Assembly (NCBI GenBank): GCA_965215235.1
Contig: OZ244053.1
Coordinates: 1,953,649-2,017,648, forward strand
DNA: 64,000 nucleotides
Direction of reading: 5' to 3'
From: Terriglobia bacterium
GTDB taxonomy: Bacteria > Acidobacteriota > Terriglobia > Versatilivoradales > Versatilivoraceae
Below, piece after piece: positions 10,414 to 63,575 of the stretch (position 1 is the first letter of the stretch; every line of letters begins with the position of its first letter). A model generated the notes under the pieces. It made no database searches, had not been told where the DNA came from, and saw only the letters and a program-made list of their open reading frames with translations. Made by a program: the position numbers and the translations under genes.

Positions 10414-11020
10414 GCCGAAGCCCCAACTCACCGCTTTGCTCCGGCCTTGTGATTCTGATCGAACCGGAGGGCCGATTCCCACTTTTTGTCGACGGCGCCG
10501 GGCCTTCTTCGGTCCGAAGAGTGACCGCAATCCGCCGTGGGAGCGGATTTCAAGGCGATTCTTGTTAGGTGCTTGGCAGACTAGGGCTGGCCGGGACTTC
10601 CTATTGTATCGTTGCGACGGCCATCGCCCTCCCAGGGTCGTAAAACGCGCTCAAATCCAGAGAATCAACAAGGGCCACTGACGTGATGAGCCAGACCCGG
10701 ACTCATCGTGTGCGTGAATCACATTCGAACGGACCGTGCCATTCGCTCTTACCATATACGCCGCGAAGCTTATATCGGCAGCCGCACCGTCGGTCTGACC
10801 ATAATATGCCTGGAGCGGCGTCCTTCGCACAGGCCAAGCCGTCTCGAATTGCAGGGAGGAAAGGTCAAGCTTGGCGGATCGTGTGGCGAAACCACGCATT
10901 TCCATGCCGGCAACTTCGTTGGACTCGTTGAAATCAAGGCCCCCCAGGCGAAACCTTTTCCGTCTCGTGGCTCGTCGAGTCGAAAGTGTAGCGCATCAGC
11001 TTCCTTATTTACATGTAGGG

Positions 11021-11136
11021 ACCTCTGCATAACCGTTATTCCGGCGAAAGCCGGAATCCAGGAACGGTGAGTTTTCAGTAGGATAGCAGCGATAGCGCAT
11101 TGCCAAATTTCGCCTCGCCCGAGGAGTTATGCAGAG
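11021..11136. repeat. MITE-like element A: a 15-16 bp terminal inverted repeat (GACCTCTGCATAAC) flanking ~90 bp
   Basis: Left end gGGACCTCTGCATAACcg at 11019-11036. Right end AGTTATGCAGAGGTCtc at ~11121-11137, its exact reverse complement. The interior contains the hairpin TTCCGGCGAAAGCCGGAA. The same TIR recurs at 54660/54896. Confidence 0.5.
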
Positions 11137-11384
11137 GTCTCATGCAGTTTCACAGCCTGTCCTCAGGTTACGGTCAAAGTTTCTGAAATGATACTTCCGA
11201 CACGCTTGGCAGCCTCGACTGGGTGGTCGTCGACGAGATGTGCGCAGCACGCCGTGGTTCGATGTTGGCGGTGACCGAACAGCTTTCCGACCAAGGGCAG
11301 GTTCTCGCCGGACATCACGGCATGGCTGGCCACGGTGCAGCCTATTCGTATCTACTAAAATCCATGCGATTCACTATCTAAGTG

Positions 11385-11413
11385 TTGACGCCTGTCGATT
11401 GTCACTGTACACT
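11385..11413 (+). promoter_or_regulatory. Sigma70-like promoter candidate for higBA (TTGACG-N17-TACACT)
   Basis: TTGACG at 11385-11390, a 17-nt spacer, TACACT at 11408-11413, 6 nt before the higB GTG. This implies a leaderless or very short-leader transcript. Confidence 0.35.
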
Positions 11414-11419
11414 TGGAAA

Positions 11420-11698
11420 GTGATTAAATCGTTTCGTCATCCCGGCCTGAAACAGCTATATGAAGGTGAGCGATCTGCAAAGGTCTCGCAGAGCCATGTC
11501 GTGAAACTTAGGCGTATTCTGACCGCATTGGACCGAAGTAACGGTCCTGAAGGAATGGACCTTCCCGGCTTTCGATTGCATCCGCTCAAAGGCCGTATGA
11601 AAGGTCATCACGCGGTCTCCGTGTCGGGCAATTGGAGGGTGACATTTCGGTTCGAGAATGGGCACGCCGTAGATGCCAACTATCTGGACTATCATTAG
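11420..11698 (+). CDS. higB: HigB toxin (RelE/ParE superfamily, plasmid maintenance system killer family)
   Basis: VIKSFRHPGLKQLYEGERSAKVSQSHVVKLRRILTALDRSNGPEGMDLPGFRLHPLKGRMKGHHAVSVSGNWRVTFRFENGHAVDANYLDYH is a textbook HigB. GTG start at 11420. Confidence 0.8.
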   Translation: MIKSFRHPGLKQLYEGERSAKVSQSHVVKLRRILTALDRSNGPEGMDLPGFRLHPLKGRMKGHHAVSVSGNWRVTFRFENGHAVDANYLDYH

Positions 11699-11708
11699 GG
11701 GGGCCGAT

Positions 11709-11996
11709 ATGGTGATGAAAAATCCTGTGCATCCGGGCGCTATTGTGCGCGAAGACTGCCTGAAACCCTTGGGCTTGTCGATCTCCGAATGCGCAAAGAG
11801 ACTTGGCGTCGGGCGCCAAACGCTTTCCAACCTGGTGAATGAAAAGGCATCCGTTTCCATCGAAATGGCCTATCGGCTGTCGAAGGCGTTCGGCTCGACT
11901 CCCGAAACATGGCTTGGCATGCAGTTGGCGTTCGACCTTGCTCAATCGCGTGACCTAGAACGACAGATCAAGGTCAAACGCATCGTGGCTGCATAG
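11709..11996 (+). CDS. higA: HigA antitoxin (XRE-family HTH)
   Basis: MVMKNPVHPGAIVREDCLKPLGLSISECAKRLGVGRQTLSNLVNEKASVSIEMAYRLSKAFGSTPETWLGMQ carries the HigA HTH. GGGGGG RBS. It starts 11 nt after higB. Confidence 0.8.
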   Translation: MVMKNPVHPGAIVREDCLKPLGLSISECAKRLGVGRQTLSNLVNEKASVSIEMAYRLSKAFGSTPETWLGMQLAFDLAQSRDLERQIKVKRIVAA

Positions 11997-22904: not shown

Positions 22905-23340
22905 GCAGCCTGAAAAAAAAGAAAGAGAAGTTCCCATTGCCGAGTACGAGGTTAAAGCCTCCATCCGGACCTCGAATCTCTGGCTCAAGAAGAACAGAGG
23001 CTCCGCTGGCTCCGCGAGATCGTCGTCCGGCTGCCCGAGGTCTATCGCCAAGTCCTGGAACTGCGCTACGGCCGGGACCTTTCTCCCGACAAGACCGCCG
23101 CACAACTCCACATCTCCCGCACGAACGTCAACACCCGCCTGAACCGCGCCGCCGCCCTGGTGAGGCGACGTCTGGAAGCCCACCTTCAACGAAAACACTT
23201 CGTCCCCAAGGCAAAGGGAAGCCTCTCATAGAGCAGGCTGAGGACGGGTCCCGCAGCGGACCGGGAGCAGCCTGAAAAAAAGTTGTGACCGCGAGCCGTT
23301 TCAAGACTCTATATAGGTAGAGGGTGATGCATTCCTCATC
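22905..23340. repeat. Direct repeat copy 1 (~93% identical to 24575-25010): 3' third of the ECF sigma gene, its downstream spacer and the leader of the next gene
   Basis: Base-by-base alignment: aaagagaagttcccattgccgagtac...ctatataggtagagggtgatgcattcctcatcgcaaccgtag versus the same string at 24575-25010. The left junction gagcagcctgaaaaaaaa|gaaagagaag re-uses a cctgAAAAAAA motif that also follows each copy. Confidence 0.7.
22956..23232 (+). pseudogene. Orphan 3' fragment of an ECF sigma factor gene (region 4 only, no start codon)
   Basis: In-frame translation SLAQEEQRLRWLREIVVRLPEVYRQVLELRYGRDLSPDKTAAQLHISRTNVNTRLNRAAALVRRRLEAHLQ is a sigma-70 region 4. A TAA at 22953-22955 precedes it and there is no region 2. 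Confidence 0.6.
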
Positions 23341-24255: not shown

Positions 24256-24887
24256 ATGTGTCCTCGAAAATCACGCAAATCGTCTGAATGTTTTCCCATC
24301 CTCCGTGACTCCGGGCTCGAACGAGCCGCCGTACCCTGTCCCCTCCTGGAAGGGAAAGAGGAAGCCTGGGTCGCCTGTTGCTCCAAGCGCTTCTTCCCTC
24401 TGGCCCGGCGCATCGCCGGGGAGGACGACCTGGCCCAAGAAGTCCTTCAGGAAAGTTGGGCCAAGATCCTGAAGGCCATCCATGCCTATCGCGGCGGTTC
24501 CCCCGCCTGCGCCTGGGTGCACGCCATTGTCTCCCACAGCGCCATAAAAGCCGGCAAAGCGCGCTCCAAAGCCAGAGAAAGAGAAGTTCCCATTGCCGAG
24601 TACAAGGTCAAAGCCCTCCATCCGGCCCCGAATCTCTGGCTCAAGAAGAACAGAGGCTCCGCTGGCTCCGCGAAATCGTCGTCCGGCTGCCCGAGATCTA
24701 CCGCCAAGTCCTGGAACTGCGCTACGGCCGGGACCTTTCTCCCGACGAGACCGCCGAACAACTTCACATCTCCCGCACGAACGTCAACACCCGCCTGCAC
24801 CGCGCCGCCACCCTGGTGAGGCGCCATCTGGAAGCCCGCCTTCAACGAAAACACTTCGTCCCAAAGACAAAGGGAAGCCTCCCATAG
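24256..24887 (+). CDS. ECF (sigma-70 family) RNA polymerase sigma factor; region 2 and region 4 are in different frames, needing a -1 shift near 24612-24630
   Basis: Frame 1 carries region 2 (...DDLAQEVLQESWAKILKAIHAYRGG...). Frame 0 carries region 4 (ESLAQEEQRLRWLREIVVRLPEIYRQVLELRYGRDLSPDETAEQLHISRTNVNTRLHRAATLVRR). The join lies in aaagCCCtccatccgGCCCCgaat. Confidence 0.7.
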
Positions 24888-34927: not shown

Positions 34928-35209
34928 ATGGAGTCAAAACACAGACAGCGCTTCAGGGTAATCATGACGGAGAACGGCAGAATGGTGGTTCCTGCCCCCC
35001 TGCGCAACCTGCTTGGCGTTGAGGGTAAGCGTGCGGAGATTTTCTTCCATGTTCAGGGCCGCGAGATCACACTCACCACCAAGATGCAGGCGCTCAGACG
35101 GGCTCAGGAACGGCTCGTCGGGATCGCACCAACAGGAACGAAGCTCGTATCGGAAGAACTTATAGAGGATCGCCTGGCAGAGGCTCGCAAGGAATCCGAC
35201 GATGAGTAA
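34928..35209 (+). CDS. vapB: VapB-type antitoxin (AbrB/SpoVT/MazE fold)
   Basis: MESKHRQRFRVIMTENGRMVVPAPLRNLLGVEGKRAEIFFHVQGREITL is a swapped-hairpin DNA-binding domain. Its stop overlaps the vapC start by 8 nt. Confidence 0.75.
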   Translation: MESKHRQRFRVIMTENGRMVVPAPLRNLLGVEGKRAEIFFHVQGREITLTTKMQALRRAQERLVGIAPTGTKLVSEELIEDRLAEARKESDDE

Positions 35210-35591
35210 AACCATCCTTGACGCATCGGCCATCCTGGCTGTGCTGTTCCGAGAGCCCGGCGCCGAGGTGATCGAGGCCCATTATGAAGAAGCAATTATT
35301 TCGTCAGTGAATCTCTCCGAGGTTGCCGCGAAATTGTCTGACTGCGGTATGACGAGTGTCGAGGTTCAGGAGCTACTCTCGGGGCTCGGTCTAGAGGTTC
35401 GCGCGTTTGACGAGTCATTGGCCTTCGCGGCTGGCGCTCTGCGGGAAGCTACCCGATCGAGTGGCCTGTCCCTTGGTGATCGGGCTTGTCTCGCACTCGG
35501 CATTGCTGAAGCGATTCCTGCTGTCACTGTGGACAGGAACTGGGCTGATATCTCCGAAAAAATCGGTGTCGAGGTCGTGGTCGCGAGATAA
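35202..35591 (+). CDS. vapC: VapC PIN-domain toxin
   Basis: MSKTILDASAILAVLFREPGAE...VNLSEVAAKL...DRACLALG... carries the PIN acidic residues (D6, E, D). Confidence 0.8.
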   Translation: MSKTILDASAILAVLFREPGAEVIEAHYEEAIISSVNLSEVAAKLSDCGMTSVEVQELLSGLGLEVRAFDESLAFAAGALREATRSSGLSLGDRACLALGIAEAIPAVTVDRNWADISEKIGVEVVVAR

Positions 35592-51566: not shown

Positions 51567-52700
51567 TCAGAACCCACCCCCTCTTCTTAGCCTCTCAAAC
51601 CGTTCAATTTCGCTCCGGGCGCGCTCCGGCTGGCCGTTTTCGCGGTAAAGCTGGCCTACCAGATAATAAGCATCGATAAACTCCGCATCCAGTTCAATGC
51701 ACTTCCGGACCGATGCGATTGCTTTTTCCGTTTCACCCAGACCGCGGTAGACTTTAGCCAAAGCATATTGCAGGTCGGGTGTGTCAGGTCTTTCCTTTTC
51801 GGCCTGCACGAGGTGACCCAAGGCCATCTTCAGCCGGCCGCTTTTTTCCAGAAGCTCACCCAGTTCCAGTCGGGCATACCAGTGATCAGGGTACTGCCTC
51901 ACTTCAGTCTCCAGCGCCTCGATGGCTTGCTGCACGGACCCAACGTCGAAGAGCATCACAGAAAGGTGGTAATGGATCCAGGAGTAACTGGGATCCTTTT
52001 GAGCGATGGCTCTGAACTGCTGGAGGGCCAAATCATGCCGGCTCTGCTCGTAGTAGGTTCTTCCGAGATGGAGTCGCGCCTCCAAGTGGTTGGGGTCGAG
52101 TTCTACGGCCCGCTTCAGAGTTTTCAGAGTCTCTTCCTCAGTTCCCACCACGGGCACGGGAAACATTCGCCAAAGCAAGAGCAGTTGCTCATCAGAGGAT
52201 CCAGGGGCCAGCCGTTCCTTCTTCTCTTGCACCAGCATGGCTCCCAGGCTGTATTGGAATTCGGCGTTGTTTGGATCCAAAGTAACTGCTTCGCGCAATT
52301 GAACTCTTGAATCATTGAACTGCTTAAGCTCCATCAGAACCAATCCGTAGAGGTGGCGGTAACTTGCCTGGTTGGGGCGTTCCTCCACGGCTTTCTGCGC
52401 TGCCAGCATGGCCAGCAGATATTCCTCATTGTCAAACTTCTTTCTTGCCTCCAGGTAGGAAGGAGAGTCGGAAGCATGGAGCGCGCCGGCTAGCCAAAAC
52501 AAGCTGCCAAAGGTCAGTCCAGCCCAAAAGAAGCGAGCCACGTCATTGCATCCGGTAAGCCGTTTGGAGAGCGGCGTGGATGTGAAACACAGCGTCAACA
52601 GACCCATGACGCCCGGTGGCCCCGACTTCCCTTGAGAGCGGAGCCCGGGGGTCTCTTCTGCGCTTTCCCATGGCGCCGAGCGGCGTATTCTGCCAATCAT
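51567..52700 (-). CDS. TPR-repeat protein (probably an N-terminal membrane anchor or lipoprotein)
   Basis: Multiple TPR units (AEFQYSLGAML, LEARLHLGRTYYEQ, YARLELGELLEKSG, IDAYYLVGQLYRENG). The start is probably the internal ATG at ~52607. Confidence 0.7.
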   Translation of the reverse strand: MIGRIRRSAPWESAEETPGLRSQGKSGPPGVMGLLTLCFTSTPLSKRLTGCNDVARFFWAGLTFGSLFWLAGALHASDSPSYLEARKKFDNEEYLLAMLAAQKAVEERPNQASYRHLYGLVLMELKQFNDSRVQLREAVTLDPNNAEFQYSLGAMLVQEKKERLAPGSSDEQLLLLWRMFPVPVVGTEEETLKTLKRAVELDPNHLEARLHLGRTYYEQSRHDLALQQFRAIAQKDPSYSWIHYHLSVMLFDVGSVQQAIEALETEVRQYPDHWYARLELGELLEKSGRLKMALGHLVQAEKERPDTPDLQYALAKVYRGLGETEKAIASVRKCIELDAEFIDAYYLVGQLYRENGQPERARSEIERFERLRRGGGF

Positions 52701-52730
52701 GCCATCCAGATCCTCTCAGCGGTGCTGCAC

Positions 52731-54447
52731 CTAATAGGGTTCGAGAGCACCATCCTCTTTCAGTCGATATCTTCGATTTACCGCCACATCTTCAAATCTC
52801 TGGAGTTTTCCATCGGTCCAACGAACGTTGAGGATATTGATCTTTTTGGCTGCCCCCAGACCAAAATGGAGCCTCAAATCGTGGGTAGACTGATAGCTCG
52901 AACCGCCCCTGACCTCCCGCACCAACCGGTTTCCCTCTATTTGGACCGTAGCCCGAACTCCAATCGCCCTGCGGTTGGTCCGTACTCCTTCCAAACGCAG
53001 ATTCAGCCAGTGGCCGGTCTCACTACCGACCTCGTTGCGCAGCAGCCAGGGTTTGCCATCCAGGTTGTTGACAGCTACGTCCATATCTCCATCATTGTCA
53101 AAGTCGGCATAGGCCACCCCCCGGCTGGACCGGGGTTTCACCCGATCGAGGCCAGCCGAAACCTCACGAAACCGCCCCTCACCCAGGTTCTGAAACATCT
53201 GGGCGTGCTGATAGTAGGTGGTGTTCAGACTGAACTGATCGATCTGGGGGAAAAGGTGGCCATTGGCCACGAAGAGATCTTCCCAGCCATCATTGTCAAA
53301 GTCTACAAACCCCACTCCCCAGCCCAGAAACTTCCAACTGGGGAAGGCAATTTTGGCCGAGTAGGTCACATCTCGGAAACTTCCGTCACCCAGGTTTCGA
53401 TAGAGCGTGTTGTATTCATCGGAAAAATTACTTAGAAAAAGATCCAGAAAGCCATCGTGATCATAGTCGCCGAATTCTACCCCCATGCTCCCCTGGGCAA
53501 CGCCGTCATCGCTATAAGCCGCCCCCGAATGGGCGCCGACCTCCTCGAAAGCTCCGTCTCCTTGATTGCGAAAGAGGAAATTGGGCGTCTGATCGTTGGC
53601 CACGTAAATATCCGAATCCCCATCATTATCATAGTCGCCCCAGACGACTCCCAACCCATAGCAGGGTGTGACCTTGGCAATCCCAGCTTTCTCACTCACA
53701 TCAGTGAACGTCCCATCTCCGTTATTGTGATAGAGGACATCCGAATCCGTCGCCAGCCCCAGGGGACCGCAATGCACGACCATGGTGCGATAGAGGCACT
53801 CCATGGGAGGAGGCTTGCGGTGATCGAACCGAACGGTGCTGGTTACGTAGAGGTCCAGCCAACCGTCATGGTCATAGTCTGCAAATGCCGCGCTCATATT
53901 CCAGCGCCTGTCGCCCACACCGGACCGCACGGTGACATCGGTGAAAGTACCGTCCCCGTTATTGCGGTAAAGCGTGTTGGAGCCATAGTTGCAAAGATAT
54001 AAATCATCCCAGCCGTCGTTGTTATAGTCGCCGACCGCAACACCCATACCCCAGCTCCGGTCGCCCACTCCCGCCTTCGCGGTCACGTCGGTAAAGGTGC
54101 CGTCGCCATTGTTACGATAGAGGGCATTAGATACACTGCTTTTGCCTTGCAGCAACTCCGGCCAGCGCCCGCCGTTGACCAAGTAGAGGTCAGGCCAATC
54201 GTCTCGGTTGTAGTCCAGCCATGCGATGCCGCTACCCATGGCCTCCAGAATGTAGCGCTTCTCTTTGCTGCCGCTAACGTGCCGGAAACGCAGACCGGCC
54301 CTCTCCGGCGACATTCACGAAAGTAACTCCCATCGAAGGCAAAGGCTGTGCCGTGCCAACCATCCGATGGTTTGTTTCTGGCCACGCCGACCCGAAAACG
54401 AACAAGAACCCCACTAAAAAGCCCACCACCGTCTTGTTGATCTGCAT
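52731..54447 (-). CDS. CRTAC1-family (ASPIC/UnbV, FG-GAP/VCBS repeat) secreted protein; frame interrupted at a G-run (~54296-54300)
   Basis: Repeated DYNNDGWDDLYL / NTLYRNNGDGTFTDVT modules and a C-terminal UnbV_ASPIC domain. The true N-terminus is a signal peptide (MQINKTVVGFLVGFLFVFGSAWP...VTFVNVAGE) in a different frame. Dropping one G in gagGGccgg joins them. Confidence 0.8.
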
Positions 54448-54659
54448 CAGGTTCGTTTGTTTGGTTGTGCCGGCGCCGAGACGCCCGCAATCATAATCAA
54501 GTCGACAAAAAGCAGTAGCCGGGCATGAGCACCAGCCAAGAGGTCACCCCTTCTTGCTGGGCGCTTCGCCAAAGAGGACACGTCAGATATCGTTCGTTAG
54601 AAGTGACTCGGAAAGGGCTTCAAGAATACTTAGGTTGTGTTGATATTTGTGATTCAAGA

Positions 54660-54896
54660 CACTTTGAGACCTCTGCATAACGCTACGTTTCGGGTCGATG
54701 GGTCATCAGAAGGATTTCAGACAGGTCTTCTGTCCCTTTTTCCCTGCTGTTTCGGTCATTTTTATCCTGTTCGAGGCCGATTTTCGCCCTTCAGGCACAG
54801 TTACCCCGAGCCATCTGGCTCGGCTACCCCACAACAGCGTTTGCAGGTGTGAAGGGACGTTCCCCAGCTGCCTTGGGTGGCAATTATGCAGAGGTC
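54660..54896. repeat. MITE-like element B with the same 15 bp TIR (GAGACCTCTGCATAA) as element A, ~205 bp interior
   Basis: Left end ttGAGACCTCTGCATAAcgc at 54658-54677. Right end caaTTATGCAGAGGTCTCac at 54877-54896. The interior differs from element A but is again hairpin-rich (CCCCGAGCCATCTGGCTCGG). Confidence 0.5.
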
Positions 54897-55375
54897 TCAC
54901 TTTATGACAAAATGGCCCCCCAACAGGTCATTCTGAGGAGCCCTTCGCCTTGGCTCAGGAACGAAGAATCTAAAGCCTACGCCTCAAACAACCTACCATT
55001 TTAGATGCTTCACTCCGCTTCGCTGCGTTCAGAATGACATAAGATGAAATGTCAACACTGCCTAATCTCCTACCCTTTTTTACTGACCTCAACCCAGCTT
55101 CTTGGGGATTTCCGGCCTTCTTTCCTGGGTTTTTGCGGAAGCCATTGTTAATCGCATGTGGAGCTATTTTTTAGCCGAGGGATTGTTGATCCCGTGGATG
55201 ACTTCGGAGCGTAGCCGAACCCTGTTTAGCCGAACCAACGTACCTTCGCCGTCGAGCCGCTAACCAATGACGTGGACAAGGCGCGCTGGTGGTATTGATG
55301 TACAATGACGGCGAGTACAGTTGCTGAGACGCCTTAGAGCCAAGCCATTCTCGTCCCTCAAGAGAGGAAAAGCAA

Positions 55376-57066
55376 TGCCAGAAACAATCGAAGCCAAAGA
55401 ACTGGAACTGAATGGCATTTTCAGCGATGCGTATCTTTTCAAGATACCTGAGTATCCGCGTCCATATGCTTGGGCAACTGAACAGGTTATGAATTATTGG
55501 ATGACCTAATCCATGCGATGGGCAAGGCCAAGAATATAAAGGAGATGCCACACTACTTCCTTGGAAGCATCGTCATTATCAGAGACTCTACCTCACTGTC
55601 GTACATAGTTGACGGACAACAGCGCATTACAACTCTCACTATATTCTGTTCTCTATATTCTGTATTCTGTTTTGTGCGTTGCGTGAACTTTCCAACGAGA
55701 GAGATCGGATCACGCTTGATAGGTATGTTCGTGAAAATAGCAATCCTTTCGCCGCTATAGAAGGGCGTTTTAGGCTCAGCGTTCGGGAGCGTGATAGAAG
55801 CTTCTTTCAAGGCAAAGTGCAGGAGATGGGTAAGTTGCCTGACTTTCTCAACCATCCTCCCGCGAACTTGCCTGACAGCCGGCAGCGGATGTTTGAAAAT
55901 GCCAAATGGCTATGGAAAAAATCTCTCGAAACTTGACGAAGAACAACGTAACAGACTTACGAGTTTTCTTGTTCAGCGTTGCTATCTTGTTGTCGTTCCA
56001 GCATCTGACCAGAGTTCCGCTTACCGCATTTTCGCTGTTATGAATGACAGGGGACTTGATTTGTCCCCTACAGACATTCTGAAAGCAGAGATAGTCGGAG
56101 CGATGGACGAGAGCATCCGCTCTCAATATACGGAAATAGGACAAGACATCGAGGAGAAGCTTGGACGCGATAATTTCAGGAACCTCTTTGCCCATATACG
56201 CATGATTTACATGAAAAACAAGATGGGCGTGGAACTCTACAAGAAGAGTTCAAAGAGGGGGTATTAAAGAAATAGAAGGGAAGGAGTTCATTGACGATGT
56301 TCTCATCCCTTTTTCCAATGCCTATAAATAGTAACCAGTACAGGTTACAAAAGCGTGGACGGCGGCGATAAAGTCAATCAGTACCTGGAACACTTGAGAA
56401 GGTTTGACAACTCTGATTGGATTCCACCTGCGATGGCGTTCTTCAATTGCAAGAAAATGACACGGATAAACTCTTCCGGTTTGTTCGTGATCTGAAACGA
56501 CTGGGCCTATGGAATGTTTATCAGGCGGGCGAATATTGACGACCGCATAAATCGGCATGCAGACGTCCTTCGCGCGATAGAGAAAGGCTGAGGAACTTTT
56601 TGGGGATACGGCGCCACTTCAGCTTTCGCCCCAGGAGAAAACGGAGATTCTGCAAAAATTGGAGGGCCCCATTTCGACGAGAGTAGCCAAGCCACTCCTG
56701 TTGCGACTCGACAGTCTATTGGCCGATGCTGGAGCGGCTCATGAGCATAAGATAATCACTGTTGAGCATGTGCGCCGGCGGAATCCAAAAGAGGATTTGG
56801 AATGGCTCATGGGGTTCCCTGATGAAGAAGAAAGAGCGCAATGGACACATAAATTTGCCAATCCTGTGTTGCTGTCCCGCTATAAGAATGCGAGTGCACA
56901 AAACTTCGACTTTGACCAAAAGAAGAAAAAATATTTCCAGGGAAAAAGTTCGCCTTTCGCCCTCACTTCGCGAGTATTGAATGAAGCGGAGTGGGATCCG
57001 AAAGTGCTGGAGCGACGACAGCGTGAGCTGATTGATGAATTGAAGAAAGAATGGCGTTTGGGCTGA
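55376..57066 (+). pseudogene. GmrSD-like type IV restriction endonuclease gene (DUF262 + DUF1524) broken into at least five frame segments
   Basis: Segments read, in order: MPETIEAKELELNGIFSDAYLFKIPEYPRPYAWATEQV; DDLIHAMG...YIVDGQQRITTLTIF (DGQQR motif); LRELSNERDRITLDRYV...; ...FAVMNDRGLDLSPTDILKAEI...; and ...TVEHVRRRNPKED...ANPVLLSRYKNASAQNFDF... (DUF1524 HNH-like). One join needs an extra T in aattaTTgg. The region is ~45% GC. Confidence 0.6.
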
Positions 57067-57130
57067 CTGCATCGCGACAGGAGCGGAGTGAAAGGTCTGC
57101 TCGGGCCGATGCCACCCCACTTCTCAGACC

Positions 57131-59972
57131 ATGGAAATTTTAACGTGGCTCGCTAGAAAGTGGCCCCATTGTCTCCTGCTGACGGCTCTTCGCCTCACGG
57201 CGTGGGGGCAGGAAGACCCGCGTCAAGTCGTGGCTCAAAACTTCGAAAAGGCTCTGGCAGCGCGAGAAGAGGGTGAGCTTGAAATCGCGGAGAGTTACTA
57301 TCGGCTCAACTTAGGTACTGCTCTCGATCAACTCGGCGACATTCACTTCCGTTTGGGCGAGTTCGAGGTGGCTGAGCGCGCTTACACGGAAGCGCTGCGA
57401 GAGGTTCCCTTTTTTGAACCGCTGCTGGTCGACCTTGGCTATACCCGACTTTTTCAAGGCCGCTACCGGGAAGGCGTCCATGCGGTGGAATCTTTGCTCG
57501 ATCTGGCCCCTTCTTCAGCCAATATCGCCAGTGAGTCTCAGGACTTGGGCAAACTGAAGGAAACCCTCCCTCTGGCTCCTCTCCAAGCTCCGGCCCGCCA
57601 TTTGTTGGCCAAGCTCTTCTTGATGACTCAACGGGACAAGGAAGCAACGATCGAGTTAGAAAAGGTTCGGACACTCGGTCCCGGCGATTCGGATGTCCTG
57701 CTCACCCTGGCAGCGGCCTATTTGAAGCAACAGCAAGAGGCCCCAGCTCGTGCGATTTTCGAAAAGATGCAGAGCTCCCTGGGAGATTCCTACCTGCTCA
57801 GGCGACGCATGGGACGAGCCTACCAAGAGGCCGGCTACTGGAAGGAGGCCGTGGAAGAACTCCAACGAGCGCGTCAGCTTGCCCCGAAGTTTGTGCCAAT
57901 CCATTATGATCTGGGGTTGACCTATCTGTTGCAAGGCGAGATCGAGGAAGGGGTGACTGCCCTCAGAGCAGCCCTGGAGTTAAATCCTCGGCAGGCCACC
58001 ATCTGCTTTCTCCTTGGTTTTTGCTATGAGATCTTGGGCGCCAGAGCCAAAGCCTTTCTATTCTTGAACAACGCCCTCGTCATTGATCCCGACCAACCAT
58101 TGGCTCATCTTTTCCTGGGTCAACTCCGCTACCAGTTGAGGGACTTCCAGAAGGCGACCCCACGGCTCAGGAGGGCCGTCTCGTTGCTGGGTCAGACTGA
58201 CGAATCAAGGTCCGACCCGGACCGTGCCGCTTTGCAACTGACGGCTGCAGCGCACTATCTCTACGGGCAGAGTCTGCTGATGAGTTCTCCCCGATCATCA
58301 AACGAAGGGGCGCGTCATCTGGACACTGCCAAAAGTTTGATGGGCAACTCCAAAGAAAAAATCTCTCGGGTTGAGGGAGTTTCTGTTCCAACAGCCACGC
58401 AGTTCGACTTGAAGACCCTTCGAAGAGTCATTCAGGAGACTCGTACCCCCTTGGTTCTCCATCGACGCCGTCTCAGCCGGGAAGAGAGTGGGAGAGCCAA
58501 GAGACTGAGCAATGCCTACCGTAGTCTGACGTCTCGGGCCTATCGGTCTCTGGCTCTCGTCAACCTGAGGCGAGGAGATTTTCCAGCTGCGGGCCGGCAA
58601 TTCGAACTGGCCATCGCCTGGGATAATTCCCTGCCCGACCTCGAGCAGCATTTGGCCAGGACCCGTCTGATGGCATCCGAGAAACGGGGCGCTAAAGCCT
58701 TCGTCTTCTTTCTGGTCTCTGCCGCTCAATCCCAGGCCGGCTTGCAACGAGCCCGCTCCGCCTATCTCAACGGCGAGTACCTTTTGGCAGAAGAGATGCT
58801 TAAACGATCGGTTGCCTCCCAACCTGCGGACGTCCAGGCTCGCAGTCTCCTGGGCACCGTTTTGGCTGGGCAGCATCGGTTTGAGGAAGCTGAGAACGCC
58901 CTGACCGAGTGCCTCAAATTGGACCCGCAACACGCAGAGTCTTATTTGAATCTGTCAACCGTTTATCTGAGTCAAGGTCGCTTCGAAGAGGCCCTCGAAA
59001 TACTTCACAAGGGACGAAAAGCTCTGCCGCTGCCGGGAGAGCATCGGCTTTCACTGCGCCTAGCCAGGCTCTTTGGCAAGCTGAGACGCTCCAAGGAGGT
59101 GCTCGAATACCTCGCGCAGGTCCCAACGCAAGGGGCGCCCCGCAGCTACTTCGAGATCTTGGCTGACTTGCACGCCTCTTCCGGCCGTTACGCCAACGCT
59201 GCCGAGAGCTACCTTCAATACCTGCGAGGGCATCCGCAATCCGCCACTACGCTATACCAGCTTTCCAGGCTCGCCCGCCGGCAACGCAAAACCACCGAGG
59301 CCTTGCAATTTGCCACTCGGGCCAGAAAACTGGCTCCATATTCTCTCCAAATACTCTTTGAAACTGCTTTTGCCAGTCTGGGTCGGGGGCTTTCAGACCC
59401 AGCCATTTTGGTGCTGAAGCGTCTACGACTCATGGAGCCTGATAATCCCGAGTACTTATTCTTTCTCGGTCAGGCCCCTCAGCCGGCGTCGTGACAGCGA
59501 TGAGCTCAAGGAGGCGATTAAATGTTACCAGCGTTTCGTCGAGCTGAAACCACGCTCCTCCCAAGGACACGGCTTCTTGGGCTACTGCGCCTTTTTAACC
59601 AAGGATTATGGATTGGCGCAGAAGCACTTGGCCCTGAGTTTGAAACTGGATGCCGATCAGACCGCCCCCTACTTCTATCAGGGAATGATTGCTTACGAGC
59701 TGGGAGAAGACGCCAAAGCCCGCAAGTTGTTCCATCGGGTTTTGGAGAAACAGCCCAATCACGGGATGGCTCGACTGGGAATGGGGAGACTCCTTCTGAG
59801 AAGCCGCGAGTACAGCAGGGCTTTAGCTGAGCTTGAAACGGCAGCCGCTTTGCTCCCGAATCGTTCTGAAATCTACTATCAGCTCAGCTTGACTTACCGG
59901 CAACTGGGAGAGATGGAGAAGTTCCGCCAAGCGCTGCGACGCTATGAGGAATTGAAGCGTCAAGGTAGTTGA
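57131..59972 (+). CDS. Large TPR-repeat protein (~946 aa); frame interrupted at a C4 run (~59475)
   Basis: ORF 57131..59494 is all TPR. The frame-0 continuation ...DSDELKEAIKCYQRFVELKPRSSQGHGFLGYCAFLTKDYGLAQKHLALSL... through 59972 is also TPR. Removing one C in caggCCCCtcag joins them (LGQALSRRRDSDEL). Confidence 0.7.
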
Positions 59973-60017
59973 AGCGTCGGTCTGGGATTTGCCCATTCGA
60001 ATCAAGCTGGAGAGGCT

Positions 60018-61709
60018 TTGCTCAAAAAAGTCATCGCAACCCATCTGATTCTTCTTGTCTGTGTTGCTCTATCCGAAAGTAGCGGCGCCTCGAATCAAAC
60101 CATTCAATTCACCGACATCACCGAAGCTGCCGGCATCGTCTTTGTTCGTCCATCAGCCCCTGAGAAAAAGTATGTGGTGGAATCCATCAGTGCGGGGGCA
60201 GCCCTCTTTGATTTCGACAACGATGGACTGCTGGACATTTACCTCGTCAACGCTTTGACCGTGGAAAATCCTGGGGAATCTTTTCCCAGCGCACTTTATC
60301 GCAATCGGGGAGACGGGACTTTCAAGGAAGTCGCCGCCGAGGCTGGCGTCGCCCATCCCGGATGGGGAATGGGAGCCGCCGTGGCTGATGTTAACAACGA
60401 CGGTTGGCTCGATCTCTATGTGACTTGCTTTGGCCCCAATAGACTCTACCTCAACAGAGGCGACGGCACTTTCCGCGACGAAACCCGTAAGGCCAAAGTC
60501 GGCGACCCCGGCTGTGGTCAGGGAGCAGCCTTTGGCGACTACGACAACGATGGAGACGTCGATCTCTACGTTGCCAACTATGTGGAATTCGACCTCAACA
60601 AGTTACCTGAGTTTGGCAAGGGCCATTTCTGTCATTACCGGGGGGTTCCCGTGCAATGCGGTCCTCGTGGTTTGCCCGGGGGAGAGGACGTGCTGTATCG
60701 CAACCAGGGTGACGGTACATTTGTCGATGTGACCCGGACAGCCAAAGTGCTGGAGAGAGACCGACTCTATGGCATGGGCGTCATCTGGGCAGACCTCGAC
60801 AAAGACGGGCGGCTGGACCTCTACGTCGCTAACGATACCCAAGCCAATTACCTTTACAGGAACTTGGGTGACGGGACCTTTAGGGAGGTGGGTCTTGAGT
60901 CGGGAGTGGCTGTCGCCCAAGACGGCAGTCCGCAGGGATCCATGGGAGTCGCTATCGGCGATTATAACCGCGATGGTTGGTCCGATATTTTTGTCACCAA
61001 TTATGCTGATCAGTATCATTCCCTCTACCGCCAAGATCGAGCCTTCTTTTTCAGCGACGTCTCTTTTGGCTCTCGAGTTGCGGCCAGTAGTTTTCCCTTC
61101 GTCGGCTGGGGGGCAGGCTTCGTCGACTTTGACAACGATGGATGGCCCGACCTGATGGCTGTCAACAGTCACGTCTACCCTCAGATCGAACAGCCACCAG
61201 TCAGCGTCCCCTATCGGCAAAGATGTCTGCTGTATCGAAACAATGGAAACGGCACTTTCGCTGAGGTAACGGCCCAGTTCGGCGACCCCTTAATGAAAAA
61301 GCAAACCAGCCGCGGAGCGGCCTTTGGTGACATCGACAACGACGGGGATGTGGATGTCCTTATCAACAATCTGGACGGAGGACCGATGCTCATTCGCAAT
61401 GACGTCGGCGACAGGTCTCACTGGTTGCTTGTCAGAACCGAAGGGACCCAGAGCAACCGGGCCGGCATCGGAGCTCGGGTCAAGGTGGTCACGACCGAAG
61501 GTTCCCAGGAGCAGGAGGTGCGTTCCGGGAGCAGCTATTTGTCACAGAACGATCTTCGACTCCACTTTGGTCTGGGGAAAGAGACCCAAATCAAAGAAAT
61601 GGAAGTCCGCTGGCCCAGCGGAGTCATTGATCACCTGGAAGACGTTCACGCCGATCAGATTCTCACCATTCGAGAGGGCGATCATCCTGCCAGCCAAAAA
61701 CTCGAATAG
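60018..61709 (+). CDS. CRTAC1-family (ASPIC/UnbV, FG-GAP/VCBS repeat) secreted protein, paralogue of 52731..54447
   Basis: Signal peptide, then FDFDNDGLLDIYLVN / ALYRNRGDGTFKEVAAEAGV / DYDNDGDVDLYVANY modules and a C-terminal UnbV_ASPIC domain (...EMEVRWPSGVIDHLEDV...). Confidence 0.8.
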   Translation: MLKKVIATHLILLVCVALSESSGASNQTIQFTDITEAAGIVFVRPSAPEKKYVVESISAGAALFDFDNDGLLDIYLVNALTVENPGESFPSALYRNRGDGTFKEVAAEAGVAHPGWGMGAAVADVNNDGWLDLYVTCFGPNRLYLNRGDGTFRDETRKAKVGDPGCGQGAAFGDYDNDGDVDLYVANYVEFDLNKLPEFGKGHFCHYRGVPVQCGPRGLPGGEDVLYRNQGDGTFVDVTRTAKVLERDRLYGMGVIWADLDKDGRLDLYVANDTQANYLYRNLGDGTFREVGLESGVAVAQDGSPQGSMGVAIGDYNRDGWSDIFVTNYADQYHSLYRQDRAFFFSDVSFGSRVAASSFPFVGWGAGFVDFDNDGWPDLMAVNSHVYPQIEQPPVSVPYRQRCLLYRNNGNGTFAEVTAQFGDPLMKKQTSRGAAFGDIDNDGDVDVLINNLDGGPMLIRNDVGDRSHWLLVRTEGTQSNRAGIGARVKVVTTEGSQEQEVRSGSSYLSQNDLRLHFGLGKETQIKEMEVRWPSGVIDHLEDVHADQILTIREGDHPASQKLE

Positions 61710-61758
61710 CTCTCGGACTCATTGATCGGATTGAGGTTGCTGCAAGGAGGGACGATTT

Positions 61759-63575
61759 ATGGGTAAGAAAGATTTCTTCTTGATCCTTTCGGTCTTTGTC
61801 GGTTGTGGCTTCTTGCTCTCGCCCCCCCTCTTCAGCGGGGAGATCAACACCTGTCCGCTGCCTCGATTCCAACAAGTCCCAATTCTGCAGACTTGCTTTC
61901 CAGACGTCGCTTCTGAGCCACTTTTCAAAGCCATCCAACGAGTACGGTCCCGTCGATTGATGGCGGTGGGAGGCCGCTCGAGTCAAAAAAGACAAGATCA
62001 CCTGGCAACTGGAGGAATTAAAGGACAAAGGCGTCGCAGGAACCTGGCACTACCCCAGGTGGTTGTATCACGAACCCCTGAGCTCGGATCCCCCTTATTG
62101 ATCCGAGGAGCGGTGGCCCCTCATGCGATTCGCCATGGAGGAGCACAGAAGGCTGGGGCTGGTGCACTGGTTTTCCGATTGGACCTCCCATTAATTTCAC
62201 CAGAATCGAGTGTGGCGGGAGCGAACCAAAAACCCGGAGTTGAGGGGGCGGCGGCTGGCCATCCATCAGCGAGTCTCGCGGGAAGCGGGTTCCATTCGCA
62301 TCGCTATCCCTGCCGAGGAGCAGGTCCTCGACGCTGCCGCCTACAGGGTGGTTGACAATCGCCTGGACTACGACTCTCGCCGACCGCTCGGCGACAAGAT
62401 TCGAGACCAACAACTGGTCTGGGCGGCTCCGGGAGCAGGTTGGATCCTTACCGTGATTACCAGTCAACCTTACGATTTGGATTACCTCAGCCGACGAGTG
62501 GTCGATCGTTGGAACGAGGTCTTCCTGGGCGAGTATGAAGAACGTTTCTCCGAGTTTTTCGGCAAGGCTCCGGACGCCTACAGGCCGGACGAGCTGTGGC
62601 TTCTCCTGGGAAACGCTCTTTATTCCAAATTCCAAGGCTCTGGTCGAAAGGGTCAAGTCGTCCAGGGGATACGATCTCTCCACCTGCCTGATCGGTCTAT
62701 TTCACGACATCGGACCCAAGACCGATCAGATTCGCTGCGATTACTATGGCGCGATGTCGGAGATGTTGGAGCACAATTTTTACCAGCCCACCTCACAATG
62801 GCTGGAGAGCCGAGGCTTGCAATACACCACCATTGCCACCTGGGGACGACTGGATCCTTTGGAACATACCTACCACTATGGGGACTATTTCCGCTAACTC
62901 CGGTGGTTTCACGTGACCGGTAACGAGGACCCCTATCGCACGCCGGTCGGGGAGAGGCGTTTGATTGACAGCAAGATCTCCAGCTCCATTGCCCATCTCT
63001 ATGGGTACCAGAGAGGGGCGATGTGCGCATTCTGGAGGTCGGGTTGGGGGGCACCCAAGAGGAAAATCTTGCCTGGACCAACGAGAACTGCGCCTACGGA
63101 ATCAATCTCTACAACCGTCACGGTGGACTCTATACCCTGATGAGAGGCTGGTATGAATGGGCGCCCCCGGCCGTCAATTATTTCCAGCCCTATTGGAAAT
63201 ATTGGAAATCCTTCACCGATTACGTCAAACGCCTGAGTTACATCCTGAGCCAAGGCAAACACCGGGCCGACGTTGCACTTCTCTATCCGCTGACGACCAT
63301 GCACGCCAATTGGGTAGCCGGTAGACTCTCAGGGGCCCGTTGACCCATGATGACCTCTGGCCGGCCTTTGAGCCGGCAGACAATCAATCTGCCCAATCCT
63401 TGATGAGATTGGCCAAGACCATCTATCACCACGGGATCGATCTGGATTTCATCAATCACCTCGGGAGTGCAGCCCTTCCGAGGAGGGAACTCAGGATAAG
63501 TCTTAATCAGGAGGAGGCGATTCAAGGCCCCCCCCTCCGGGGAATTGGCGGCAAAGGCTACCTCAGTCTGTAGCC
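61759..63575 (+). pseudogene. Fragmented gene for a large lipoprotein-signal-bearing protein (unknown family, possibly a glycoside-hydrolase-like enzyme); coding signal hops between frames at least 5 times
   Basis: Lipoprotein-like leader MGKKDFFLILSVFVGCGFLL. Then plausible coding pieces in different frames: RVKKDKITWQLEELKDKGVAGTWHYPRWLYHEP; ...IRIAIPAEEQVLDAAAYRVVDNRLDYDSRRPLGDKIRDQQLVWAAPGAGW...; ...ERVKSSRGYDLSTCLIGLFHDIGPKTDQIRCDYYGAMSEML...; and ...AWTNENCAYGINLYNRHGGLYTLMRGWYEWAPPAVNYFQPYWKYW.... The family call is not secure. Confidence 0.4.

Follow-up and report, generated by a model that had tools for sequence, protein, structure and literature searches.

A probable GmrSD-family pseudogene at a variable intergenic site of a Terriglobia bacterium

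A GmrSD-family gene between two divergent operons

The window analysed here is a stretch of 64,000 nucleotides from a Terriglobia bacterium (GenBank assembly GCA_965215235.1, contig OZ244053.1, forward-strand positions 1,953,649 to 2,017,648), and all coordinates below are counted from its first letter. Between two divergent genes, ASPIC1 on the minus strand and TPR2 on the plus strand, it holds a lineage-specific variable segment (54462..57121, delimited by blastn against related loci). This segment carries two small palindromic elements, a scrap of a native gene and, on the plus strand at 55375..57066, a type IV restriction gene of the GmrSD family (DUF262 + DUF1524), recognized by frameshift-aware alignment and by Pfam and PADLOC matches. 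The best overall explanation of the locus, which we hold to be very probable, is that of a dead foreign gene for a HEC-06-like, single-protein GmrSD, which arrived by replacement. Comparison with related loci puts the left limit of the segment at 54462 or 54494 and its right limit at 57121, nearly where a first, sequence-only reading of the same DNA had placed them (54450-57130).

That reading had also described a fall in guanine-plus-cytosine (GC) content from ~60% to ~45%. The dip is real, and the figures have to be corrected to 56% and 46-48%: GC is 48.5% in segment 54462-57121 versus 56.4% in the remaining window, and 46.4% in the GmrSD gene itself (55375-57066). In 300-nt windows it drops from ~55-59% to 44-50% across ~54450-57150, and a scan of the whole 64 kb finds 1-kb windows with GC <51% confined to 54501-57250. 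Outside the insert, 1.7-kb sliding windows have a mean GC of 56.3% (standard deviation 1.5, minimum 52.1%). The GmrSD region, the lowest-GC stretch of the window, lies ~6.6 standard deviations under that mean.

In a three-frame translation, pieces of a DUF262/DUF1524 protein are spread over all three plus-strand frames. Once the frames are repaired, Pfam recognizes GmrSD_N (PF03235; E=6e-33, 115 bits versus a cut-off of 33.2, profile positions 2-198 of 199) and GmrSD_C (PF07510; E=3e-20, 73 bits versus a cut-off of 23), both above the curated cut-offs. This profile search on the repaired translation had been proposed by the sequence-only reading and, together with PADLOC, it bears out the GmrSD-like family call made there. 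The best full-length PADLOC match is to the model 'Orf5' (PDLC02686, E=1e-154). The HEC-06 model PDLC04155 follows with E=1e-57 (residues 1-555 against profile positions 1-560/562), the SspE models match residues 15-102 (E=6e-20), and NCBIfam has no model for the subfamily of the window copy. The stitched translation retrieves 4205 homologues, nearly all of 555-565 aa and with both domains, the best being 66-67% identical.

Members of the family share DGQQR, a QR pair and FxxxN in DUF262, and E/D-H-N-N in DUF1524 (PMC4619093). DGQQR, the NTP (nucleoside triphosphate) binding and hydrolysis motif of DUF262 (PMC4619093; bioRxiv 10.1101/2024.01.29.577857), is kept in the conceptual translation at 55611..55625 (plus strand), within IVDGQQRITT (55605-55634), and FxxxN is retained as RIFAVMND. 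The conserved QR pair (EYQRxYxW) is gone: EYQRPYAW has become EYPRPYAW (55450..55473, plus strand), at a position where Q is found in 107 of 107 intact homologues. In the nuclease region, TVEHVRRRNP (56758..56787, plus strand) keeps the E-H dyad at 56764-56769, while the L-P of EHVLPQNP is now R-R. Further on, HKFANPVLLSRYKNASAQN (56848..56904, plus strand) keeps both Asn of E/D-H-N-N, located in FANPVLL and SAQN, with the Leu of LANLVLL changed to Pro (L490P). Mutation of Q79/R80 or of E471/H472 abolishes HEC-06 defence (bioRxiv 10.1101/2024.01.29.577857). By analogy with such relatives, the N-terminal DUF262 of an intact protein (ParB/Srx-fold) would bind and hydrolyse NTP through DGQQR, and its C-terminal His-Me/HNH domain, DUF1524 (E/D-H-N-N), would then cut incoming DNA with modified bases. 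We infer that the intact ancestor would have acted alone, as a DNA endonuclease dependent on NTP and on modification of its target.

Among characterized systems HEC-06 is the nearest in kind (Payne et al., bioRxiv 10.1101/2024.01.29.577857; PADLOC PDLC04154-04157). It has the same DUF262-linker-DUF1524 layout over ~560 aa, and the DGQQR and E-H residues needed for its defence are still encoded in the window copy. HEC-06, however, is embedded in Hma or type I restriction-modification systems, whereas the window copy stands alone between TPR/ASPIC operons and has nine frameshifts. Profile matches assign it to a sister subfamily of HEC-06, since 'Orf5' fits far better. With EcoCT596 GmrSD and Eco94GmrSD (Machnicka et al. 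2015, PMC4619093) it shares GmrSD_N, GmrSD_C, DGQQR, FxxxN and E/D-H-N-N. This is a kinship at the domain level only: the E. coli enzymes target glucosylated hydroxymethylcytosine (glc-hmC), while in the window the QR pair is mutated (YPR) and the gene is a pseudogene.

The BREX-associated BrxU (PDB 7P9K), an NTP-regulated enzyme that cleaves modified DNA, has the same DUF262 + DUF1524 architecture. By contrast, no BREX genes lie near the window copy, whose neighbours are TPR, FG-GAP/ASPIC and GH106 genes, and a phmmer search of the PDB with the intact homologue P0001 did not retrieve 7P9K at E<=0.01, so that neither BREX context nor close sequence similarity places it with BrxU. SspE, a phosphorothioate-sensing nicking enzyme (PDB 6JIV), has a similar N-terminal DUF262 region and aligns at DGQQR and at IEHV.PQ.P / GNL.LL. 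Yet it is ~770 aa long and acts with sspABCD, whereas the PADLOC match of the window copy covers only the N-terminal ~90 residues and no ssp genes are adjacent; the window copy is not an SspE. The best solved relative is chain B of PDB 9JFL, a 'DUF262 domain-containing protein' of 596 aa (E=9e-20, residues 8-304), with a low similarity limited to the N-terminal half.

Frameshifts, substitutions and sequencing error

The frames were followed by frameshift-aware protein-to-DNA alignment with three intact homologues of 560-562 aa (P0001, P0002 and P0007). The alignment starts at 55375 and reaches a stop codon at 57064-57066, with 66-70% aa identity and nine frameshifts in the same places with all three references. 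Where the sequence-only reading had counted five or more frame segments there are ten, all on the plus strand: 55375-55488, 55491-55643, 55679-55915, 55920-56222 and 56225-56266, then 56269-56328, 56328-56447, 56450-56503, 56505-56588 and 56590-57066. The first frameshift is a -1 at 55489 (GTT-AT-GAA), outside any homopolymer. The second is an insertion of 23 nt at 55644..55669 (plus strand), an untidy tandem duplication seen both as direct repeats D5 and D15 and as an alignment gap. It consists of CTATATTCTGT repeated, with an extra ATTCTGT, and breaks the TTLTILFCALREL helix just 3' of DGQQR; it is not of the homopolymer type. Then come a +1 within an A6 run (55916), a -1 outside homopolymers (56223), two -1 in short A runs (56267 and 56326), a -1 at 56448 (TTT to TT), a +1 at 56504 (GG to GGG) and a +1 at 56583-56589, where an additional T stands between GGC and GAG. 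The proposal that the indels lie in A/T runs is thus right in part: about five of the nine are in short homopolymers, and these are not just A/T runs. A functional member of the family needs an uninterrupted coding sequence, and nine frameshifts interrupt this one. Programmed frameshifting or phase variation was considered and rejected, the nine shifts being independent, in both directions and mostly outside long repeats.

Are these frameshifts real? We judged this by four indirect tests, namely substitutions, an error-rate control on other open reading frames (ORFs), the state of the neighbouring GH106 gene, and other ORF pairs of the window. For substitutions we took the columns conserved in at least 97% of 107 intact homologues (n=151). 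The window copy deviates at 12 of these near-invariant columns, whereas the intact homologues deviate at 1.8 on average and at 6 at most. Among the replaced residues are Q28P (YQR), W248G, L460R/P461R (EHVLPQ), S468L and L490P (LANLVLL), and the residue lost at L460, P461 and L490 is in each case present in 107/107 homologues. These 12 substitutions are therefore not products of indel error.

The second test sets the gene against other ORFs of the window. In eight long ones (19.1 kb, with 1019 homopolymer runs of at least 3 nt) there is no frameshift, versus nine in the 1.69 kb of the GmrSD gene (Fisher's test, p=1.5e-10 per nucleotide and 2.9e-6 per run). The third test looks downstream of ASPIC2, the second gene of ASPIC type, at an alpha-L-rhamnosidase-like GH106 pseudogene (61759-63455, plus strand) with 84% aa identity to a 1354-aa orthologue in a related locus, L082 (described below). 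Relative to L082 and to another such locus, L083, this gene has nonsense substitutions at 61958 (TGC>TGA), 62099 (TGG>TGA), 62192 (CAA>TAA) and 62895 (TAC>TAA). It also has indels of +2, -1, +7 (a tandem ATTCCAA), -1 and +2, and homology to L082 ends at 63455. Real gene decay is therefore at work in the neighbourhood of the GmrSD gene, and GH106 is decaying in the same way as that gene. Because the eight long ORFs are free of frameshifts and GH106 carries nonsense substitutions, uniform sequencing error is rejected. As for the fourth test, the window has further pairs of ORFs that overlap on one strand, and these were suspected of being split genes; they proved to be normal toxin-antitoxin genes of HigB/HigA and PIN type. 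Those genes, HigB/HigA-type and PIN-domain, are intact at 11192-11996 and 35166-35591.

Several observations weigh against the gene being dead. None of its frames contains a nonsense substitution, and every catalytic residue of DGQQR and E-H-N-N is preserved in the coding sequence. Short homopolymers of 2-6 nt (A6, A3-4, T2-3, G2-3) account for five of the nine frameshifts, each single-base frameshift is called from the assembly sequence, and the ORFs of the control were picked for being open and intact. Furthermore, each of the flanking genes ASPIC1 and TPR2 has a single frameshift, in both cases a +1 in a G/C run, so that some single-base frameshifts, these two especially, could be consensus errors. 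All this would fit an intact and functional GmrSD gene in which errors of assembly or consensus have clustered in an AT-richer segment. We find this very improbable, in view of the clean 19.1 kb of long ORFs, the 23-nt tandem duplication together with at least three indels outside homopolymers, the 12 near-invariant residues replaced, and the nonsense substitutions of the adjacent GH106 gene. The GmrSD gene is thus, as far as the assembled sequence can tell, highly likely to be a genuine pseudogene. The sequence-only reading had hesitated between inactivation and indel error, and its inactivation reading is the one that the frameshifts, the substitutions, the ORF control and GH106 uphold.

A more restricted survival may also be imagined, with the N-terminal part dead and a DUF1524/GmrD-like HNH nuclease persisting on its own in the last segment (56590-57066; a TTG at 56659 would give 135 aa). 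That segment runs for 161 codons without a stop, spans the whole GmrSD_C match and has E-H-N-N intact, and GmrD proteins on their own are known in the family (PMC4619093). However, L460R, P461R, S468L and L490P fall within this very segment, at positions invariant in 107 homologues, and there is no evident good start codon or ribosome-binding site. Promoter and terminator scans gave nothing better than shuffled sequence, and the DUF262 motif is needed for defence in HEC-06 and BrxU. Survival of such a nuclease is very unlikely.

Origin of the segment and history of the site

A protein search with TPR2 yields three orthologues, P0122 (85% identity), P0123 (75%) and P0124 (74%). The contigs of TPR2 orthologues provide four related loci, L082 to L085, which we compared with the window by blastn and tblastn. 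In L084 and L085 (~80% nt identity) ASPIC1 (minus strand) and TPR2 (plus strand) are back to back, ~450-520 bp apart, which represents an empty site. In L083 (~80% nt identity), where the TPR2 protein is that of L084, an IS3-type (rve) element and a DDE_Tnp_1 element are present and only 31 codons of ASPIC1 are left. L082, with 87% nt identity over 6.3 kb, has a 2.4-kb repeat-rich stretch, then rhaM, AP_endonuc_2, a gene for a 661-aa protein, PSCyt2/PSD1 and DUF1501, directly upstream of TPR2. At the same site the window has two MITE-like elements (miniature inverted-repeat transposable elements), a PSD1 remnant and the GmrSD pseudogene, so that five related loci, the window included, present four configurations of the ASPIC1/TPR2 intergenic site. 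By blastn, window 51649-54461 corresponds to L084 1-2809 and window 57174-63459 to L084 3331-9607, while window 57122-63455 corresponds to L082 9992-16307 and window 54430-54493 to L082 108-171.

Three of these loci deserve a remark of their own. L083 (6364-9559) and L084 (2796-3237) differ in content at the same intergenic site, with an IS3-type (rve + HTH_Tnp_1) and a DDE_Tnp_1 element in the former and an empty site in the latter, and their TPR2 proteins are 100% identical; this is a structural polymorphism at the population level. In L082, no genes are called in the 2.4-kb stretch that separates ASPIC1 from rhaM (126-2528); it contains a ~677-bp tandem duplication, the same peptide strings being read at 810-1145 and at 1388-1822, and the plus strand resembles a degraded GxxExxY-type protein.

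No trace of GmrSD is found in L082-L085, and the intact orthologue that the sequence-only reading had suggested looking for in relatives is missing at these four loci. The nearest intact homologue (L001) is ~70% identical, and its gene has a GC of 46.3%. DNA similarity between it and the window pseudogene is limited to the coding sequence (70.5%) and, because of this, the ends of the transferred unit are not definable from L001. In two other hosts (L153 and L154) the homologous gene lies alone among metabolic genes, 11-12 GC points under flanks of 67% and 63% GC. Copies with 41-45% identity occur in 104 plasmid records (Proteobacteria, Actinobacteria, cyanobacteria and one archaeon), and phage records give distant partial matches only. 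The horizontal acquisition proposed at the outset agrees with the absence of the gene at four related loci and with a GC deficit like that of family members in other hosts. On this comparative evidence the GmrSD gene is judged to be foreign. In the 90% cluster of another close homologue, P0003, fragments of 344 aa and 213 aa lie on one 310-kb contig and further members of the cluster are truncated as well, which suggests that the family has been pseudogenised repeatedly in other genomes too.

The boundary between native and foreign DNA is visible 5' of the gene. A remnant of 73 bp (55132..55204, plus strand) encodes ~21 residues of a native PSCyt2/PSD1 (DUF1553-type) gene, with the motif ...NRMWSYF..G..DPVDDF. 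It has 92% nt identity to L082 7803-7876, inside the 877-aa PSCyt2/PSD1 gene (tblastn E=7e-5), has the orientation seen in L082, and is 1.93 kb away from where TPR2 begins, versus 2.12 kb in L082. No piece of rhaM, AP_endonuc_2, the 661-aa protein or DUF1501 of the L082 block survives anywhere in the window. The region that follows (55205..55374, plus strand) has a Shine-Dalgarno-like GAGAGGA ~8 nt before the ATG and is without blastn similarity to L082-L085 or L001; it is taken, on that comparison, to have arrived together with the GmrSD gene. After the stop codon comes a spacer of 55 bp (57067..57121, plus strand), and homology to L082 restarts ~9 bp ahead of the TPR2 ATG. Neither tRNA nor tmRNA genes usable as an integration site occur within 48-64 kb, and Rfam, at permissive E-values, has no match over 54200-57300.

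The most economical history, read from these alignments, is a replacement combined with a ~7-kb deletion. It starts from an ancestral state in which ~450 bp of intergenic DNA separated two divergent TPR + FG-GAP/ASPIC operons, the arrangement still seen in L084 and L085. The common ancestor with L082 then had a block ending in PSCyt2/PSD1-DUF1501 directly upstream of TPR2. In the window lineage, a foreign segment of ~1.9 kb (55205-57121, 46-48% GC) with GmrSD replaced the 3' part of PSD1 and DUF1501 (2.1 kb in L082), a further ~7 kb upstream was lost, and MITE-type elements transposed in. After its arrival, selection for GmrSD would have been lost and the gene would have decayed to its non-functional state. 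Two cautions count against this sequence of events: the direction of rearrangement rests on four related loci, and the motif within the PSD1 remnant is a conserved one, so that the remnant might conceivably come from a paralogue. The simple insertion first envisaged thus gives way to a replacement of native genes that are still present in L082, with 73 bp left behind. Nor is the segment one acquired insert of 2.7 kb; it is a mosaic of a MITE, a 112-bp palindromic element, the 73-bp PSCyt2/PSD1 remnant and ~1.9 kb of foreign GmrSD DNA.

The converse scenario, in which GmrSD was ancestral at the site and lost from the relatives, its low GC reflecting the AT-biased decay of an old native pseudogene, could appeal to the drift of pseudogenes towards AT and to a comparison limited to four related loci; it is most unlikely, since the outgroups L084 and L085 have a short empty intergenic region, the sister L082 has other genes there, a remnant of the L082-type PSD1 lies immediately 5' of the window GmrSD, and intact members share its GC (46.3% in L001) and a deficit of 10-12 GC points in other hosts.

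Flanking genes, palindromic elements and the meaning of the locus

Two divergent pairs of TPR and FG-GAP/UnbV_ASPIC genes, as identified by Pfam, bracket the segment. On the left, ASPIC1 (52731..54447, minus strand), an FG-GAP/UnbV_ASPIC gene also recognized by Pfam, has 85% identity to its 576-aa orthologue in L084. A +1 (GG to GGG) at ~54306 puts its signal-peptide exon-like N-terminus (54447-54307) in another frame than the 527-aa body, and the ancestral gene probably started elsewhere than at the annotated 54314. Among the species-representative matches listed for ASPIC1, the closest come from metagenome-assembled genomes (MAGs) of Acidobacteriota, at 61% (L002) and then 51-53%, and the host is therefore probably an uncultured acidobacterium; the L002 MAG is not syntenic. 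On the right, the TPR gene TPR2 (57131..59972, plus strand) is 944-961 aa long in relatives, P0122 having 944 aa and 85% identity. In the window, frameshift-aware and nucleotide alignments show it split into ORFs of 787 aa and 131 aa by a +1 (CCC to CCCC) at 59474-59477; this +1 may be a genuine mutation or an error of the consensus. Identity is 48% between ASPIC1 and ASPIC2 and 21-27% between the TPR proteins. Because of this low identity between paralogues, and because L084 and L085 have the same layout, the flanking pairs are old rather than a recent inverted duplication. The divergent pairs described by the sequence-only reading are therefore there, and the inversion point that it saw between them is not. 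Elsewhere in the window, a direct repeat of 300 nt, 92% identical, lies at 22920-23219 and 24576-24875, 1656 nt apart, among short overlapping ORFs.

Within the segment, MITE B (54666..54898, 233 bp) has perfect terminal inverted repeats of 15-16 nt, GAGACCTCTGCATAA / TTATGCAGAGGTCTC, and is framed by a 5-bp target-site duplication, ACTTT, at 54661-54665 and 54899-54903; repeats and duplication alike vindicate its initial identification. Its terminal repeat occurs four times in the window, versus 0.04 expected by chance, its DNA fold has a z of -5.2, and a shorter, older second copy of the family is found at ~11018-11141. The element thus shows all the features by which MITEs are recognized, that is terminal inverted repeats, target-site duplication, small size, lack of coding capacity and multiple copies. 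MITE A sits immediately upstream of the HigB-like gene, and Rfam has no match around it at permissive E-values. A scan of metagenomes for 13-nt termini spaced 80-110 nt apart retrieved 67 loci (L086-L152), from marine, groundwater (Hainich) and freshwater samples. They have identical termini of 14-15 nt, RAGACCTCTGCATAA...TTATGCAGAGGTCTY, around unrelated interiors, and a 5-bp duplication accompanies 17 of 38 distinct family members, MITE B included. Several of the metagenome interiors hold nested GTCATTGCGAG...CTCGCAATGAC palindromes. A separate metagenome scan for elements of the size of MITE B (190-220-nt interior) returned none. Within the 67 loci, termini paired at 0.4-5 kb, as expected of an autonomous parent, were not found, nor was a parent transposase. 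A literature search with the terminal sequence gave chance matches only. The idea that the termini are integron attC sites was rejected, the core being unlike RYYYAAC/GTTRRRY and target-site duplications being present.

The second small palindromic element (54927..55038, 112 bp), similar to a MITE or to a repetitive extragenic palindromic (REP) sequence, has the termini GTCATTCTGA / TCAGAATGAC and partly palindromic arms. Its 10-mer terminus occurs twice in the window, once per end and on opposite strands (0.07 expected), and its DNA fold has a z of -2.1. It resembles the GTCATT(C/G)(T/C)GAG... palindromes nested inside some metagenome MITEs.

The hotspot that the sequence-only reading had suspected at this site gains support from the four different occupants seen across five loci of the clade. 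A bolder proposal would be that the ASPIC1/TPR2 region is a lineage-wide hotspot of cassette exchange, a 2.1-kb native cassette having been traded for a 1.9-kb foreign defence gene, and that the RAGACCTCTGCATAA termini imply a very widespread transposase. Taken together we consider these two propositions rather unlikely; no integrase, tRNA or att site for such a swap is in sight at the ASPIC1/TPR2 region.

What remains is an ordinary pseudogene, a dead copy in the well-known GmrSD family that has met the ordinary fate of a defence gene. Only the recurrent turnover at the intergenic site and the widely shared MITE termini are mildly unusual. For annotation, the locus should be labelled as a GmrSD-family pseudogene and excluded from the defence repertoire of the organism. 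As a case of gain followed by decay of a solitary defence gene it is clean and datable, the empty site, the state before insertion and the decayed insert all being visible. In this lineage erosion affects the entire neighbourhood, with GH106 dead, the block from rhaM to DUF1501 deleted and the two flanking genes each carrying one frameshift, and the widespread MITE termini may help those who catalogue mobile elements.

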